Assembly: GCA_008080745.1 (NCBI GenBank)
Contig: SHMX01000009.1
Location: forward strand, 42,381-74,380
Reading direction: 5' to 3'
From: Candidatus Thorarchaeota archaeon
Lineage (GTDB): Archaea > Asgardarchaeota > Thorarchaeia > Thorarchaeales > Thorarchaeaceae
Length of the DNA stretch: 32,000 bases
Part shown: positions 22,029 through 31,887 of the stretch, in pieces
Layout: the number at the start of each line of letters is the position of its first letter
Position numbering within the stretch: position 1 is the stretch's first letter
The notes under the pieces: generated by a model
Database searches by the model: none
What the model was told of the DNA's origin: nothing
Seen by the model: only the letters and a program-made list of their open reading frames with translations
Program-made: the position numbers and the translations under genes

Positions 22029-23264
22029 GTGTCTGATTATGATGTTATTGTAGTAGGAGCGGGTCCAGCAGGAACCATTGCAGCCTATGAGTGTGCTAAG
22101 CGTGGGCTTGATACTGTTTTGCTTGAGAAGTTTGCATTGCCAAGGGAAAAACCCTGTGGTGGTGCAGTGATGTATCGTGGTGTCCGGGTGGTAAACGGTG
22201 AAATCCCCGCGCATCTTATTGAACGCAAGATTTACGGACTAAGTTTTACTTTGCCAAAATTGGGAGCGTTTGAATTCGTTACCGATAAACTGATTGGAAT
22301 AACAGTATTCAGAGAATATTTTGATGAATATCTCGCTCGGCGAGCATCCGAATCTGGAGTAACTCTTATTGAAGAAGCACGAGTTGTTGATGCCCATACC
22401 TCATCTGACTCGGTCAGTGTAACATTAGAAGACAGATCCGAATATAGCGGATCTTTTCTAATTGGTGCTGACGGGGTGAATTCTATAGTAAGCCGGTCTC
22501 TAGGTCTTCGTCCAAAAAGAAAAGATCTGAATCGTCATGGTATCGGTATGGAGGCCGATTTCCATGTGGGCGAAGCTGGTGTGGAGAAAGCAACTGATGG
22601 CAACCCTCACATTCTGTCAATTCTTCCTGTAAAGGGTAAACTTGGTTATGGGTGGGTCTTTCCAAAAAGAGAACATCTAGCTATAGGCGTTGCTGGGCCT
22701 GCTGCTGATATGCTACCTCTTCGCCCCTCTTTCGAAAGGTTTTGTGAACTGATTGGATGCGATAGAGAAGTAGAATTAGTGCCAGAAAAGATCAGGACCT
22801 ATTTTCTGGGTGCCGATGGCCTTCAGAACAAAAATGTCTTGGACCGCGTGATTCTTGTTGGAGATGCAGCTGGTTTTGTTGACCCAATGATGGGAGAGGG
22901 AATCGCATATGCTATGCAATCGGGAGTTTTCGCTGCTGAGGTGATTTCTAATGCAATGGAAACGGGTCAATATAATGAGAGGTATCTTTTCCGATACCAA
23001 AAATTATGTGATGCTGAATTTGGATCAAGTTTTGGGATGGCTGAATGGGCCGGCTCTCAGGGTTCGGTACTTGCGGAGCGACTCCTTCCTAAGATTAACG
23101 GGCATCCTCTCGCCGCTCAAATTATGGCACAGGTTGCCCGAGGTGAAATAGGGTATTGTGATATTCCCGCAACAGTACTCCGTATTCTCCCACAAGAGCT
23201 GCCTAGCATTTTACGCAGTCTAATCAGGTCTAGAATTAGTGGAGCAAGTCAAAAAGATTCATAG
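22029..23264 (+). CDS. Geranylgeranyl reductase family FAD-dependent oxidoreductase
   Basis: VIVVGAGPAG, REKPCGG, LIGADGVNS, GYGWVFPK and LVGDAAGFVDPMMGEGI motifs. Confidence 0.93.
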   Translation: MSDYDVIVVGAGPAGTIAAYECAKRGLDTVLLEKFALPREKPCGGAVMYRGVRVVNGEIPAHLIERKIYGLSFTLPKLGAFEFVTDKLIGITVFREYFDEYLARRASESGVTLIEEARVVDAHTSSDSVSVTLEDRSEYSGSFLIGADGVNSIVSRSLGLRPKRKDLNRHGIGMEADFHVGEAGVEKATDGNPHILSILPVKGKLGYGWVFPKREHLAIGVAGPAADMLPLRPSFERFCELIGCDREVELVPEKIRTYFLGADGLQNKNVLDRVILVGDAAGFVDPMMGEGIAYAMQSGVFAAEVISNAMETGQYNERYLFRYQKLCDAEFGSSFGMAEWAGSQGSVLAERLLPKINGHPLAAQIMAQVARGEIGYCDIPATVLRILPQELPSILRSLIRSRISGASQKDS

Positions 23265-23296
23265 GCTACCATGTCTCTCGCTTAGATGGTGGAATT

Positions 23297-24292
23297 TTGA
23301 AAATCGCTTCGATCCTCGTCATTCTCTTACTGGGAATCCCTTATGTTCCAGTTGTTATTGGTGATGATTACAGTCCGGTTTTCAATGGAGATGAAGCACT
23401 TCAGTATATTGTAGAACAGTGTGCCTTTGGTCCCCGTCCACCGGGCTCAGAGAATCTCAGTGCTTGTCGGTCGTATATCGTTGACAAACTTGAGCTAAAT
23501 GGTTGGCTGGTCACCTTACAAAACTTCACCTATCGTGAAACCAACTGCAGTAATATCATTGCAAGATGGGGCCCTGTGGTCAACTCAACAATGATTCTTG
23601 GCGCTCATTACGATACCCGCCCAAAGGCAGATAACGATCCTAATCCATCCAATCGCAATAAACCAGTTTTGGGAGCTAATGATGGTGCAAGTGGGGTAGC
23701 GGTACTTCTTGAACTGGCAAAAGTATTGCCTGAAGATGTACGATCTTATGTTGAATTGGTCTTCTTTGATGCTGAAGACTCTGGGTATATTGATGGTTGG
23801 GAGTGGATTGTTGGGTCAACCTACTATGTGAATCAGATGACATCTGAAAGAATCAATTCAATTTCCGCCATGATTCTTGTGGACATGGTGGGTGACGCAA
23901 ATCTTCGGATACCTAAAGAGATCAAGTCTACGGATTCCCTTCAAAACTTGATATGGTCCATTGCCCATGAGTTCAACTATGGTAACATATTTCTCAATGA
24001 AACGGGGGGTTCCATAACTGATGATCATGTGCCCTTCCTGAAGGCTGAGATTCCATCAGTTGACCTGATTCATTACCCCTTTCCAGATTCTTGGCATACT
24101 ATAGAAGATACTCCTGACAAATGCAGTGCAGCTAGTCTTGAAGCAGTGGGTCGTGTAGTAGAAGTATTCGTTGTGGATTATCTGCCAGATGTGTCTGATC
24201 TTCCAGATGATATACCTCTTGATTTCCTTGTGGTTATCTTTGCAATCCCCCTTGTGCTCCTAGTATATTTTGCCATCCGTCGTAGACATTAA
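23297..24292 (+). CDS. M28 family metallopeptidase / glutaminyl-cyclase-like, secreted with C-terminal membrane anchor
   Basis: Signal peptide; LGAHYDTRP, GANDGASGVAVLLELA, FFDAED, DMVG, DDHVPF and WHT motifs; C-terminal TM followed by RRRH. Confidence 0.9.
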   Translation: MKIASILVILLLGIPYVPVVIGDDYSPVFNGDEALQYIVEQCAFGPRPPGSENLSACRSYIVDKLELNGWLVTLQNFTYRETNCSNIIARWGPVVNSTMILGAHYDTRPKADNDPNPSNRNKPVLGANDGASGVAVLLELAKVLPEDVRSYVELVFFDAEDSGYIDGWEWIVGSTYYVNQMTSERINSISAMILVDMVGDANLRIPKEIKSTDSLQNLIWSIAHEFNYGNIFLNETGGSITDDHVPFLKAEIPSVDLIHYPFPDSWHTIEDTPDKCSAASLEAVGRVVEVFVVDYLPDVSDLPDDIPLDFLVVIFAIPLVLLVYFAIRRRH

Positions 24293-24347
24293 TTACTTAG
24301 ACTTTTATCTTAGAAATGTATATTCTATACATTGATATAATACATCG

Positions 24348-25241
24348 GTGGCATCTTTGCTAGAAACTACTCTGTACCATCCTTCTGGTTCTCAATCACC
24401 CCCTCTGACATGTGTATCAGTCAGTCCATCCAAAGACATAGTTGCAGTTGGTACACTAGACGCTCAGATTATTCTTTTTAACACCAGGACCCGGAAACTC
24501 CGTCGTTCTCTTAAAGGTCATGAAAAACTAGTATCCTCGCTCATGTTTCTAGATGGCGGAGATTATCTTCTATCTAGCAGTTGGGATGGTACCACAAAAA
24601 TGTGGTCGTCGTCAAAAAAATTTGAAGAAAGTTATACCCTTCGTCATAGTACCGACATCAAGGTTCTGGCTGTGGATTCTACGTTTTCAAAAGGTGTCGC
24701 AGGGACACGTGACGGTTTAGTAAAGCTATTCTCACTCAAGAAGCTAACCTGTATCAGAAACCTGCAATTTCATCAACGCGATATCTCCGGACTAGCATTT
24801 TATGCTGGAGATACAAAACTGATTACGACATCTTGGTCGGGCAAATGCAATCTGTGGGACCTGTCCTCTTACGATTTGGTGGAAACGATTTTTCAGACAG
24901 ATAAACGAATTCGCTCCCTTACAGTTTCCCCGGATGATACAAAGGCAGCTCTGGGTCTTCACGATGGTACTGTTGTGATTCTTGACCTTATTGGTGATAT
25001 CAAACCACAAACTCTCGATGGCCATAACGATGTCGTGGGATCATTAGCGTTCAATCCATCTGATTCCACTCTTCTCACCTCGAGTTGGGACACCACCATT
25101 CGGTTATGGTCCAACGATTTCAGCCAATATGAAGAAACAAAATTACCAACCGGGGTGACCGACATAACTTGGGATCAAAGAGGAAAGAAGTTCTTCACCT
25201 CTGATTTCTCAGGCTCCTTGAAGTGCTGGACTATTTCTTAA
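24348..25241 (+). CDS. WD40 repeat beta-propeller protein
   Basis: GH...V.SL.F..LLSSSWDGTTKMW and GHNDVVGSLAF..LLTSSWDTTIRLW; about 7 repeats. Confidence 0.92.
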   Translation: MASLLETTLYHPSGSQSPPLTCVSVSPSKDIVAVGTLDAQIILFNTRTRKLRRSLKGHEKLVSSLMFLDGGDYLLSSSWDGTTKMWSSSKKFEESYTLRHSTDIKVLAVDSTFSKGVAGTRDGLVKLFSLKKLTCIRNLQFHQRDISGLAFYAGDTKLITTSWSGKCNLWDLSSYDLVETIFQTDKRIRSLTVSPDDTKAALGLHDGTVVILDLIGDIKPQTLDGHNDVVGSLAFNPSDSTLLTSSWDTTIRLWSNDFSQYEETKLPTGVTDITWDQRGKKFFTSDFSGSLKCWTIS

Positions 25242-25773
25242 ACACTCTAAGATCTATGTTGAAGTAGCCCTCTTTATTCCACCTTAGTCGAACTCTATCC
25301 AACCTTTCTGGATTTTTTACAATGGCGGATAGGATTTCTGCATTATTATTTCTACTATGTTTGTCAAATGGTATTACTCTCTCTCCACCACTTTTGACAG
25401 TAAGGACAGCAGCCTTGTGGGTAATCTGTATTAGTGGAGGTGAGAAAATCATGATATCCTGCTTGAACTTTGGCATCTTCCCTCGCAGGTCTCTTCTCCA
25501 TTTAGCTTTATGCTTGTGTTCCCCAATAGTTACTCGGGCAGTCTTTACAACATCTTTCAGGTAGGCTAGACGTGGGTCGAAGCTTTCAGCAAAATCTTCT
25601 CGAATTTCTTCTATTATTGTATGGGCTTTCTTCTTCTTGAGTTTGAGAATCTGCTTAATCACATAGTTTGTTGCCTTATGATATTCTTCAAGTTCTGCTT
25701 CAAGCACTAATTGCTTTTCATGAGTCAAAGCCACACTTAGCAGTTTCACCACATCTACTTCCAGCTCAGACAT
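25231..25773 (-). CDS. Basic hypothetical protein resembling the N-terminal WED/REC half of TnpB/Cas12f, with no RuvC domain
   Basis: Pattern VVKLLSV..QLVLE..LEEY..A.NYVI / helical REC-like segment / MPKFK / beta strands / RVRL...EGYFNIDL.V, ending where RuvC-I would begin. Homology judged by eye. Confidence 0.6.
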   Translation of the reverse strand: MSELEVDVVKLLSVALTHEKQLVLEAELEEYHKATNYVIKQILKLKKKKAHTIIEEIREDFAESFDPRLAYLKDVVKTARVTIGEHKHKAKWRRDLRGKMPKFKQDIMIFSPPLIQITHKAAVLTVKSGGERVIPFDKHSRNNNAEILSAIVKNPERLDRVRLRWNKEGYFNIDLRVFKK

Positions 25774-25777
25774 ATTA

Positions 25778-25791
25778 ACCACTGATGTGGT
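25778..25791 (+). repeat. 14-bp imperfect palindrome ACCACTGATGTGGT, copy 1
   Basis: Identical to 26958-26971; 4 nt upstream of the ATG of the TnpB-N-like gene on the minus strand. Confidence 0.8.
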
Positions 25792-25822
25792 GAAAAATAC
25801 TATGCCATATCAATCTTCAGTC

Positions 25823-26845
25823 TCAGAGCCGTTTTGCTAAGAATTCCGCTTCGCCGATACTGCGTTTTACACCCTTTGGATGGAATTCATATGCTCCATA
25901 TTTCACAAGAACCCTCTCAAAGAACTCTGGTTCGTGCTCCTTGATGTCTTGGATGAATGTTCTCGGATTGAGTGAAACTTCCCCTGAGATTGCCAACAAT
26001 GCTTCTCCAAGTTTGCGAATGGACTGTCTCAATTCGAATACTGCTAGCTCATAATCACCATTAAGAGTGAGATTCACTGCACTATAGGCTGCCCTCTGTG
26101 CATCCGATAGAATGATTGTTGCTGTAACATCCGCGGACTCGGCATCAAATGCTCTCTCAGCTTTGGCAATCCACATCTTGATTATATCCGAAATCTCCAG
26201 AAGTTCGTTTTCATTCTTACCCTTGAGTTTGAACGTTCTCAAAAATAGCTGATAGGTCATAGGATCCATTATTCTAATTTCAGTAAGAATCTCTGCAGGT
26301 TTTATCACACAGAAATTATTATTTTTCATGAGTACAGCCCTTCCCAGTTCGAAGAGCCCCACTTGAATCTCATGGACTGCACTAATTATATCGTCTTTTT
26401 CTGCAAAAGTAGTTGCACTCTCAAGCGCCTCTAATGCCTTTGTCTTGACGGACTGGATTGTTTCTGGTGGCCATTGGTATACCGCGACCTCTTTTTGCCA
26501 GCCTTTGAGTTCCCCTTCCTTGTCATAGAGCACCTCTGCTTTTCTTAACTGACTAACAACGGAAGCTATCTTAGAAACATCGATTGTTTTCCCCTCAATG
26601 ACATCCTGAACATCCTTTGGTGTGAGAAAAGTCATGTCTATCATGACATTCTTATGTTTTGCTAGAAGTTGTGCAGGGGCCTCATCAGTTTCCATTATCA
26701 CGCACAGGTCGAGGTCGGAGTTAGCGGTTATGATTCCATTAACATAGGATCCATGCACGTATACACCTATCACGTTGTCTTTCTTCTTCCATTCTTCAAC
26801 GGTTTCTTTCAGGACTGTGTTGAAACGGCCACGAACATCCATCAT
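25823..26845 (-). CDS. Nucleotidyltransferase (Pol-beta/MNT fold) with two C-terminal helical (KNTase/HEPN-like) bundles
   Basis: VYVHGSYVNG....SDLDL motif and third Asp in IDMTF; ATG at 26845 follows GGAGTGA. Confidence 0.82.
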   Translation of the reverse strand: MMDVRGRFNTVLKETVEEWKKKDNVIGVYVHGSYVNGIITANSDLDLCVIMETDEAPAQLLAKHKNVMIDMTFLTPKDVQDVIEGKTIDVSKIASVVSQLRKAEVLYDKEGELKGWQKEVAVYQWPPETIQSVKTKALEALESATTFAEKDDIISAVHEIQVGLFELGRAVLMKNNNFCVIKPAEILTEIRIMDPMTYQLFLRTFKLKGKNENELLEISDIIKMWIAKAERAFDAESADVTATIILSDAQRAAYSAVNLTLNGDYELAVFELRQSIRKLGEALLAISGEVSLNPRTFIQDIKEHEPEFFERVLVKYGAYEFHPKGVKRSIGEAEFLAKRL

Positions 26846-26957
26846 TCTTTTATTCACTCCGATATTATCGCATCAATACCATTGTATGCACTTGCTCTTT
26901 TATCAATAAAGCTATCTCGTTACTACGTCAATAGCGTTAATAGCAAACATTTGTGAT

Positions 26958-26971
26958 ACCACTGATGTGGT
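26958..26971 (+). repeat. 14-bp imperfect palindrome ACCACTGATGTGGT, copy 2
   Basis: 4 nt upstream of the rph ATG (26976). Confidence 0.8.
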
Positions 26972-26975
26972 TTAC

Positions 26976-27686
26976 ATGACCCGATCTGATGGTAGAATGA
27001 ATGATGAACTTAGACCCGTTGTGATTTCACGAGAGTTCCTAAAGCATCCTGAAGGATCCGTTTTGATTAAGACAGGTGATACACAGGTAATCTGCACTGC
27101 AACTGTGGAGACCGATGTTCCTAGCTGGCTAAATGGTACCGGAAAAGGTTGGGTGACTGCAGAATATGGCATGTTACCCAGAGCAACTAACGACCGTACC
27201 AACCGATATCGGGTTAGTGGACGCAATCAAGAAATTCAAAGACTAATAGGACGTTCACTTCGAGCAGCAGTCAATCTATTTGAGCTTGGCGAGAACCAAA
27301 TCCGTATAGACTGTGATGTTATTCAGGCTGATGGAGGCACACGAACCGCTTCCATAACCGGAGCATACGTGGCATTATGTGATGCTCTTCAATATATGGT
27401 GGACTTGGATATTATTCAGGAACTGCCTCTTATTGGGCAAGTAGCTGCGGTCAGTGTTGGAGTAGTCGAGGATGAGAGCCTGCTTGATCTATGCTATATT
27501 GAAGATTCTTCTGCATCCGTGGATATGAACATCGTAATGCGTGATGATGAATATGTTGAAGTACAGGGGACAGGAGAGGATGGCACCTTTAATCGTGCTG
27601 CATTGGATGAACTACTTGACCTTGCAGAAAAGGGAATATTCGAGCTTCAGCAGCTACAGAAAGATGCATTATCCATTCAACTTTAA
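26976..27686 (+). CDS. rph: Ribonuclease PH, bacterial type
   Basis: [72 protein letters not shown] and EVQGTGE motifs. Confidence 0.95.
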
Positions 27687-27727
27687 TTACTCGAAAGAAT
27701 CAAATCATTGAGACCAGTACATAGTGT

Positions 27728-28120
27728 ATGGTCTGGTCTATTGATTCTCTAACAACCTCTGGCATCCTTTTTCTGATTGCACTTCTTCAATATGTTCTTG
27801 GTACCCTTATTCATGTAATGCAGAGAGCATATATTTCTCGACTGAATGGAACAGAGGTTGCTGTTAGTGTCCTTGGTTCAATGGCTAAATGGGCACGTGC
27901 AAGGAGTGATTCCGATATCACTCTACGGATATTATCTCTCTTGGGTTTGATCTTACTCCTTTCTTCGGTGCCTCTGGTTTCTTTTCTTATCCTATATCTC
28001 GGCCAATCGATTGATCTATTGTTGATCATTGCTTTTCTCGCTTGGATATTCTCTCTCGTTGGACTGGTCAGACGTTCTGTATCTGCCTTTCTTACGGTAC
28101 GAGGTCATCTTCCCAGCTGA
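27728..28120 (+). CDS. Hypothetical membrane protein (about 3 TM)
   Basis: 130-aa hydrophobic ORF downstream of rph. Confidence 0.65.
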   Translation: MVWSIDSLTTSGILFLIALLQYVLGTLIHVMQRAYISRLNGTEVAVSVLGSMAKWARARSDSDITLRILSLLGLILLLSSVPLVSFLILYLGQSIDLLLIIAFLAWIFSLVGLVRRSVSAFLTVRGHLPS

Positions 28121-28382
28121 ATTGGCATTTGTGTTACCTTTACAATGCTCTTGTGTTACTTTATTCATATATCATCTCCTAAATCGACGTCTTATACACC
28201 TCAAATCTATGGTCGCGACGCAAGCTTTATTTTGAAATAATACGCAGTTAGTTTGCTTGCATTGGTTAGAGAGGCCTTTTGCGACGTGGCATCTATTGCC
28301 GGCAAATTCGTCGTGGGGTTATTCTGGTTTAGCGCCAAACTGATGTTGGCTTATTACAAATCGGTCGTGACAGATAGCAACG

Positions 28383-28390
28383 TTTAAATT
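28383..28390 (+). promoter_or_regulatory. Candidate TATA box of the 23S rRNA transcript
   Basis: TTTAAATT immediately before the structured leader region. Confidence 0.5.
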
Positions 28391-28737
28391 GCTACTTCGG
28401 TTCGACCGACGAGCGCACACCTCTAATGATTTGTGTGCATGTCCAAAGACCCCGCTAGGGGCTCCGCCGAGAAGATCTATGTCACTTCTGTGACCCTGAT
28501 TCTTCGATGAGGGGATTCATCAGGACGGATCATATGCCGAGAGATCAAACACGCTTCATGCGGTTTCCTGATGGAGGACAAGTTGATGCATCGGCTCAGG
28601 TACCGTGCGTAATGCCATCTGTTTTTACAGATGTGTACCTCGTTCACTGAACGCAAAAAGAGTGCGTGCAAAGACTGCAGAGGATGATGATAAACATAAC
28701 ATACACAACTATGAAGTAGAAATGAAGTAGATACACT

Positions 28738-28770
28738 CCTTGGTAACAGGCAATACTGTGCCGGTTACAT
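28738..28770 (+). other. 5' arm of the pre-23S processing stem (pairs with 31891-31922; BHB-like)
   Basis: CCTTGGTAAC/GTTGCCAAGG, AGG/CCT, ACTG/CAGT and GGTTACAT/GTGTAACT complementarity with opposing 3-nt bulges. Confidence 0.8.
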
Positions 28771-28775
28771 GAGTA

Positions 28776-31887
<3,112 letters not shown>

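Follow-up and report, generated by a model that had tools for sequence, protein, structure and literature searches.

TnpB and its relatives divide the recognition and the cleavage of their targets between two lobes. In ISDra2 TnpB the WED domain is made up of residues 1-12 and 117-176, the REC domain occupies residues 13-116 and the RuvC domain starts at residue 185; in TnpB as in TldR, the duplex of the transposon-associated motif (TAM) is held in the cleft between WED and REC alone, whereas the guide scaffold lies on WED and RuvC and the heteroduplex channel needs RuvC (PMC10097598). A census of TnpB and Cas12 from 2023 records many immobilised or inactivated TnpBs and documents exaptation, and the cases set out there all have the RuvC fold (PMC10691335). 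The described domestications (Cas12 effectors, Cas12k, TldR and the sigma-linked dCas12f) all keep a bilobed protein and a guide RNA. TldR is a bilobed protein with a degenerate RuvC that binds an adjacent guide RNA and represses a promoter, and its REC and WED groove is described as an inherited DNA-recognition module (bioRxiv 10.64898/2026.09.22.753285). Here, we report a gene of Candidatus Thorarchaeota archaeon, an open reading frame (ORF) of 180 amino acids, which encodes a stand-alone WED and REC protein and is very probably a selected, nuclease-less derivative of TnpB. The ORF lies at 25231..25773 on the minus strand of a stretch of 32,000 nucleotides (hereafter the window; GenBank assembly GCA_008080745.1, contig SHMX01000009.1, positions 42,381 to 74,380 of the forward strand), and its description is based on the reading frame and its translation, a structural model, orthologues and an analysis of selection.

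The ORF begins with ATG, in agreement with the 'MS(E/D)...' starts of its orthologues, and ends with a stop codon at 25231-25233. A preliminary description of this DNA, made from the sequence without database searches, had noted an intact Lys/Arg-rich frame of this length with a ribosome-binding site, and this is confirmed by the translation (24 Lys and 13 Arg; isoelectric point 9.8) and by a GTGG-type site ahead of the ATG, of a class that is common genome-wide. An AlphaFold2 model calculated from a 19-sequence alignment reached a pLDDT of 94.7 and a pTM of 0.88, and comprises a strand at residues 6-13, three long helices, another six strands and a short stretch of helix. Its topology is that of the WED oligonucleotide/oligosaccharide-binding (OB) fold, a beta-barrel in which strand 1 is separated from strand 2 by the helical REC domain. 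A Foldseek search against the PDB gave 27 matches at E<=1e-3, all of them Cas12f or ISDra2 TnpB, with weaker matches to Cas12k, Fanzor2, CasLambda and Cas12n. With VIA-align, the model was superposed on residues 3-213 of SpCas12f1 (Z 14.7, 171 residues, root-mean-square deviation 3.6) and on ISDra2 TnpB (Z 11.2), where residues 4-180 of the model fall on residues 2-176 of TnpB. The top ~45 PDB matches and all 30 AFDB matches belong to one superfamily, TnpB/Cas12, and all of the structural matches share about 10% sequence identity with the protein. TnpB families, together with many short 'transposase (fragment)' entries, were returned independently by searches with the model of this protein in the ESM Atlas (pTM 0.87) and by AFDB clusters. 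A structural match to the WED and REC domains of TnpB, which had been set beforehand as a test, was thus obtained by Foldseek, by VIA-align and in ESM Atlas and AFDB. Because the model covers residues 2-176 of TnpB, and given the published domain limits of ISDra2, the protein corresponds to a complete recognition lobe and nothing else.

The domain layout follows from the model and from conservation within the family (all coordinates on the minus strand). Residues 1-13 (25735..25773) carry the first WED beta-strand, assigned by DSSP, and lead into a conserved LxSVxLTxEKQ block; residues 14-100 (25474..25734) form the helical REC insertion with helices at 18-45, 50-64 and 69-92; and residues 101-180 (25234..25473) complete the WED beta-barrel. 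This last part includes PKFK (101-104), IPFDKxSRN (134-142) and a terminal hairpin, RVRLxWNKEGYxxIDxR (160-176). Three blocks are invariant in the ORF family, LxSVxLTxEKQ (11-21), IPFDKxSRN (134-142) and RVRLxWNKEGY (160-170), and a family-specific segment of two helices (138-153) overlaps the second of these. The most conserved block of the family lies in REC and reads Y71-L-x-D74-V-V-K77-T78-A79-R80; in ISDra2 numbering, obtained through the alignment of a local TnpB, the corresponding stretch is W70-L-S-E-V-D-K76-F77-A-L-Q80, so that a pattern [WY]Lx[ED]VxKxA is common to the ORF family, ISDra2 TnpB and the local TnpBs. The correspondence of K77, which is invariant in the family, with K76 of ISDra2 is drawn from the motif, a loose hhalign alignment and the approximate structural register and is not a per-residue superposition. 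In ISDra2 TnpB, the TTGAT TAM is read by K76, which contacts its guanine in a bidentate manner, and also by F77 and Q80 (PMC10097598).

The end of the protein can also be compared with TnpB. In the ISDra2-like TnpBs of related genomes, a P[KR]FK motif precedes the RuvC-I motif G[VL]D[LV]G by 79-85 residues, and the ORF ends 79 residues past its own PKFK, that is, at the expected start of RuvC-I. The local TnpBs used in this comparison are close relatives of ISDra2 TnpB (the protein of locus L060 matches it with an E value of 3.6e-61). The preliminary description had proposed both a TnpB-like order of elements and an end just before RuvC-I; the order was recovered as a strand, a Q..Y..A.NY helix, a helical region, PKFK, further strands and a terminal strand pair, and the end agrees with the spacing in the local TnpBs. 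A RuvC domain of RNase H fold with a D-E-D triad is absent from the protein and from all of its orthologues, and none of the 19 family members had a Pfam match to the TNB zinc ribbon (PF07282); the PF07282 matches of the window's own genome lie away from the ORF. About half of the family consists of forms of 230-240 amino acids in which an insertion of 50-60 residues separates REC helices 2 and 3 (P0007, P0009, P0011 and P0013-P0017 in columns 100-175 of alignment A2), the protein of the window being of the short form. One member of 377 amino acids (P0021) has a C-terminal tail of about 190 residues made up of helical repeats.

A word-indexed search returned eight relatives of 179-236 amino acids and 35-70% identity. 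When 1.84 billion cluster representatives were searched exhaustively with HMMER, only 19 relatives came to light; these share the same architecture and include no full-length TnpB, and a profile search among longer proteins likewise gave no fused or full-length relative. Of the 85 species genomes in the GTDB family of the window, 79 gave a match to the gene, with each of the 16 genera represented, and it was found in none of 315 genomes from 32 other families of the Asgard phylum; the six family genomes without it are 65-88% complete. There is a single match per genome, as in the window's own, with the exception of G328, which has two full-length matches on separate contigs, and G314, in which the gene is split across two contigs. 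By comparison, the number of TNB-domain matches (PF07282, full TnpB) in a genome of this family varies between 0 and 45. The order of the RNase PH gene (rph), a nucleotidyltransferase (NTase) gene and the ORF does not vary among the 35 other loci examined, comprising 31 checked by tblastn and four deep-branch loci with gene tables, and it extends to the deepest branches, where identity is down to 31-34%. The 31 ORFs that were reconstructed (176-240 amino acids) are intact without exception, and the Nei-Gojobori ratio of nonsynonymous to synonymous substitution rates (dN/dS) is 0.05-0.23 in nine pairs with dS of 0.23-0.48. Conserved orthologues of the same length, conserved synteny and a dN/dS below 1 were what the preliminary description had proposed to look for, and all three are borne out by these figures.

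None of the hallmarks of an IS200/IS605 element, namely multiple copies, variable location and a nearby transposase, was seen at this fixed syntenic site. The distribution, synteny and dN/dS therefore identify a fixed, selected host gene and not a fragment of an insertion sequence (IS). The sister family, represented by a single genome, has the NTase (30% identity) with a small membrane protein in the place of the ORF, which makes it probable that the common ancestor of the GTDB family acquired the gene. Taken with the structural comparison, these data show an ancient, immobilised derivative of TnpB, inherited vertically as a core gene of one Asgard family of the Thorarchaeota type under purifying selection, which has lost RuvC, the TNB zinc finger, the C-terminal tail and any adjoining guide-RNA gene and has kept the recognition lobe complete. 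The initial reading of the ORF as the WED/REC half of a TnpB/Cas12f-like protein with no nuclease domain is accordingly upheld by fold, spacing and orthologues.

Compared with the described systems, the protein shares with ISDra2 TnpB (PDB 8EXA, 8H1J, 8BF8) the WED OB-barrel, the insertion of REC after strand 1 and the PxFK and [WY]Lx[ED]VxKxA motifs. It differs from TnpB in lacking RuvC, the TNB zinc finger and the C-terminal domain, in having neither an adjacent omega-RNA locus nor TnpA, in being a vertically inherited single copy at a fixed site with ~10% identity, and in its family-specific helical segment with DKxSRN. The best structural matches are Cas12f proteins of type V-F (PDB 9I8Y, 8J12, 7WJU, 8DZJ; Z 13-14.7), and the closest resemblance is to the second Cas12f protomer, which is often resolved only as WED/REC; unlike Cas12f, however, the ORF protein has no zinc-finger insertion and no RuvC, and neither a CRISPR array nor a trans-activating CRISPR RNA (tracrRNA) is nearby. 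TldR and the inactivated TnpB/Cas12 proteins (Cas12k, Cas12m and the sigma-factor-associated dCas12f) are likewise derived from TnpB and have given up cleavage. TldR nevertheless retains a degenerate RuvC and an adjacent guide, whereas the ORF has neither a RuvC lobe nor an adjacent RNA locus, and on this comparison any targeting by the protein must presumably be protein-based or proceed through an unlinked RNA. Pfam 38 contains families of TnpB N-terminal fragments of similar size and the same fold, MJ0013 (PF27234), Aq_aa04 (PF27142) and SSO2105_N (PF27229), with MJ0857 as an example; these are annotated as IS fragments, in contrast to the core, syntenic and selected gene described here, and they did not turn up in our local Pfam scan, in which no direct test of membership was made. 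A conceptual precedent is Nop5, a proposed descendant of IS110 recombinases (bioRxiv 10.1101/2024.06.21.599552), which differs in coming from another transposon family with another fold and in its continued use of guide RNAs.

A full-text search of the literature returned no description of a natural RuvC-less derivative of TnpB and nothing on TnpB in Thorarchaeota, and such a derivative serving as a host gene appears to be unpublished. The gene indicates that the recognition lobe of TnpB can by itself become a fixed core gene of the host, and it enlarges the core gene set of Asgard archaea by a lineage-specific protein of transposon origin. Surveys of TnpB based on RuvC or on the zinc ribbon would presumably be blind to such genes, hence TnpB may have been exapted more widely than is recognised, as far as the census cited above allows this to be judged.

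As to function, the TAM cleft is the one surface formed by WED and REC alone; the other surfaces are only half kept and there is no room for a guide gene at the loci in which gene ends were read, and this favours binding of duplex DNA independently of a guide. We consider such binding with a regulatory outcome a tentative proposal that falls somewhat short of an even chance. The basic protein would hold duplex DNA without a guide by means of the TAM cleft that it has kept, with the invariant YLxDVVKTAR helix (K77, approximately K76 of ISDra2) and the likewise invariant IPFDKxSRN and RVRL elements as putative contact surfaces. Its role would be regulatory, one candidate being autoregulation at ATTGATTAGG, 40-45 nucleotides (nt) upstream of its own start. 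The motif in question is a conserved 10-nt element upstream of the ORF (25805..25814, minus strand), which reads ATTGATATGG in the window and ATTGATTAGG in most relatives and which contains TTGAT, the TAM of ISDra2. It is recognisable in all of the 31 loci compared (L001, L002 and L009-L037), being exact in 16, with one or two changes in 14 and degenerate in L012, and lies 39-48 nt ahead of the assigned start in 27 of them. Many loci have a short hairpin behind the motif, with compensatory changes between the arms (GGTGGA/TCCAC, GGCGGA/TCCGC and GGTGA/TCACC). The narrower proposal, that the TAM-reading module alone has become a guide-free, sequence-specific DNA-binding regulator which reads a short motif, possibly the TTGAT-containing ATTGATTAGG of its own promoter, seems unlikely on present evidence. 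If DNA binding through the TAM cleft were true, the protein would be a natural minimal TAM-reader, of use both in studying how a protospacer-adjacent motif (PAM) or TAM is recognised without an R-loop and as a small DNA-binding scaffold; if it were a sequence-specific regulator, it would represent a new class of archaeal transcription factor, an RNA-guided nuclease minus its nuclease lobe, reading its motif through the helix by which ISDra2 TnpB recognises TTGAT.

Several observations weigh against this interpretation, some at the level of descent and others at the level of function. Comparisons by hhalign with three local TnpB clusters and with trimmed N-termini gave E values of 0.2-0.4, which are not significant, and Pfam and PDB sequence searches with the protein and with the family profile returned nothing meaningful. 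In favour of descent from TnpB there are weak matches: TIGR01765, the NCBIfam model of the TnpB N-terminal domain, matches four of the 19 family members (best E 0.0066) and the Cas12f2 model three (best E 0.0017). The homology to TnpB is therefore a matter of predicted structure together with weak motif echoes. Conserved counterparts of the ISDra2 TAM contacts Y52, S56, Q80, T123 and N124 are not found, and WED contacts RNA as well in TnpB and Cas12f. A regulon defined by ATTGATTAGG was considered and rejected, as the motif shows no clear genome-wide excess (128 matches against 80 control matches in 31 genomes, about 20 being the ORF's own site). The simplest reading of ATTGATTAGG is that it is the unusual promoter of the ORF itself, similar to a TATA box and B recognition element (BRE); it can be read as a promoter since the promoter element of the NTase is equally conserved. 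An autoregulatory operator is possible. As a general promoter word, ATTGATTAGG showed no positional enrichment upstream of genes in the window's genome, whose promoters resemble canonical TTTAWA boxes.

The objection from sequence can be carried further, to the claim that the likeness of fold is convergent or a product of modelling and that the protein is an unrelated OB-fold with a helical bundle. The lack of significance in sequence-level tests and the ~10% identity to structural matches speak for it; two independent predictors nevertheless agree, the whole chain is matched with the same unusual topology, in which the REC bundle follows the first barrel strand, and every one of the top ~45 PDB and 30 AFDB matches comes from one superfamily. 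The repeated, if weak, matches to the TIGR01765 and Cas12f2 models and the colinear PKFK, YLxDVVKTA and terminal-hairpin motifs point the same way, and we regard this explanation as very improbable. A decaying IS fragment without function would be in keeping with the many 'transposase (fragment)' ORFs of 150-300 amino acids and the same fold held in databases. This explanation, the least probable of all those considered, is effectively refuted by the distribution at one syntenic site in 79 of 85 genomes, the intactness of all 31 ORFs and the dN/dS of 0.05-0.23, and a conserved promoter-like element also stands against it.

The two remaining alternatives accept the derivation from TnpB and differ on what the protein does. 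It may bind a structured RNA encoded elsewhere, either a relic of an omega-RNA scaffold or a host RNA, in which case it may direct the neighbouring NTase and RNase PH, or help them, in the metabolism of RNA 3' ends. WED touches guide-RNA stems in TnpB and TldR, several second protomers of Cas12f are resolved only as WED/REC bound to single-guide RNA, and such chains (7wju_B, 8dzj_B, 9nzt_B) belong to the top structural matches; moreover, the protein is basic and its gene always follows the NTase gene, which is head-to-head with rph. On the other hand, the scaffold-binding surface of TnpB consists of WED and RuvC, the latter being absent here, and no space for an adjacent guide RNA was found in the eight loci in which gene ends were read (overlap in four, a gap of 31-65 nt in four). 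An Rfam scan of 23000-29000 of the window had the start of the 23S rRNA as its sole match. The genomic association is also less telling than it seems, given that the sister-family genome keeps the NTase without the ORF, that the whole region of about 10 kb is syntenic across the family, which makes adjacency weak functional evidence, and that the NTase fold is KNTase-like and unspecific; altogether, we consider RNA binding possible but rather unlikely. Truncated, DNA-binding-only derivatives of transposases damp other transposon families, as with InsA of IS1 and KP of the P element. A similar part for the ORF protein, as a decoy or inhibitor that would take up the TAM sites or omega-RNAs of resident TnpBs and so reduce the activity of IS200/IS605, or else as a trans-acting partner forming half of a split nuclease with its RuvC half encoded elsewhere, seems improbable to us. 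The same genomes do hold ISDra2-like TnpBs, with up to 45 matches each, and in the Cas12f dimer one protomer contributes mainly WED/REC, yet the gene is kept in four genomes without a detectable TNB-domain gene (G320, G323, G324 and G328), the family is too diverged from local TnpBs for a profile match and no conserved RuvC-only gene is nearby. Single copy and fixed position further favour a role in the host that does not depend on the variable IS load. Our preferred, though tentative, proposal remains the binding of duplex DNA without a guide.

The ORF lies between two genes. Downstream, an intact convergent gene for a WD40 beta-propeller (24348..25241, plus strand; Pfam and locus comparison) overlaps it by 11 nt, the stop of the ORF lying inside the last WD40 codons, and no decayed RuvC region can therefore follow the ORF; an overlap that leaves no room for a RuvC remnant had been proposed at the outset and was measured as such. 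In the deepest branches (L080-L083), the WD40 gene is missing and a gene for an M28 peptidase converges directly on the ORF. Upstream, the NTase gene (344 amino acids; 25823..26857, minus strand; Pfam, model and Foldseek) is separated from the ORF by 49 nt, or by 40 nt if counted from an alternative GTG start, which corrects the 32 nt given earlier. The preliminary description had also reported neither TnpA nor IS ends nearby. The former part holds, as no TnpA or other IS-associated gene adjoins the ORF, either within the window or in the gene calls of seven orthologous loci with gene tables, whereas the latter part is left aside, IS ends having never been searched for systematically.

A 14-bp palindrome, ACCACTGATGTGGT (ACCAC-N4-GTGGT), lies at 25778..25791 and overlaps the GTGG ribosome-binding site. 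There are only two copies in the genome, this one before the ORF and another at 26958-26971 before rph, and since orthologous loci from other genera do not conserve the palindrome, it must be recent and specific to this genome. ACCAC-N4-GTGGT had been put forward as a target of the protein; this was rejected in view of the lack of conservation in orthologous loci and of its GTGG arm being the ribosome-binding site. The divergent rph-NTase spacer (26858-26975) is strongly conserved across genera. It contains AGATAGCTTTATTGA, a conserved BRE/TATA-like promoter element of the NTase gene (26903..26917, minus strand) recognised by locus comparison, where AGATAGCTTTATTGA(C) serves the NTase, and CTATTAAT/CTATTATTT on the other strand for rph.

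The NTase consists of a pol-beta NTase domain and a helical C-terminal domain (model pLDDT 90.3). Its Foldseek matches are kanamycin nucleotidyltransferase (KNTase)/ANT(4'), the structural-genomics entry 3C18 and Hailong HalB, and this similarity of fold points to no specific substrate. The NTase is co-distributed with the ORF (80 of 85 genomes), and is also found without it in the sister family and, at ~24% identity, in two other Asgard families. A complex prediction for the NTase and the ORF protein, both entered as alignments, had a score of 0.00, which speaks neither for nor against binding. A search for RNA sequencing runs that include the locus returned none. Besides ordinary ISDra2-like TnpBs of about 400 amino acids, the family genomes contain large TNB-domain proteins in frames of ~550-735 amino acids, for example at G000:C1:300752-300985 and G000:C2:479634-479777 and in many relatives (L007, L008, L065, L070 and L078).

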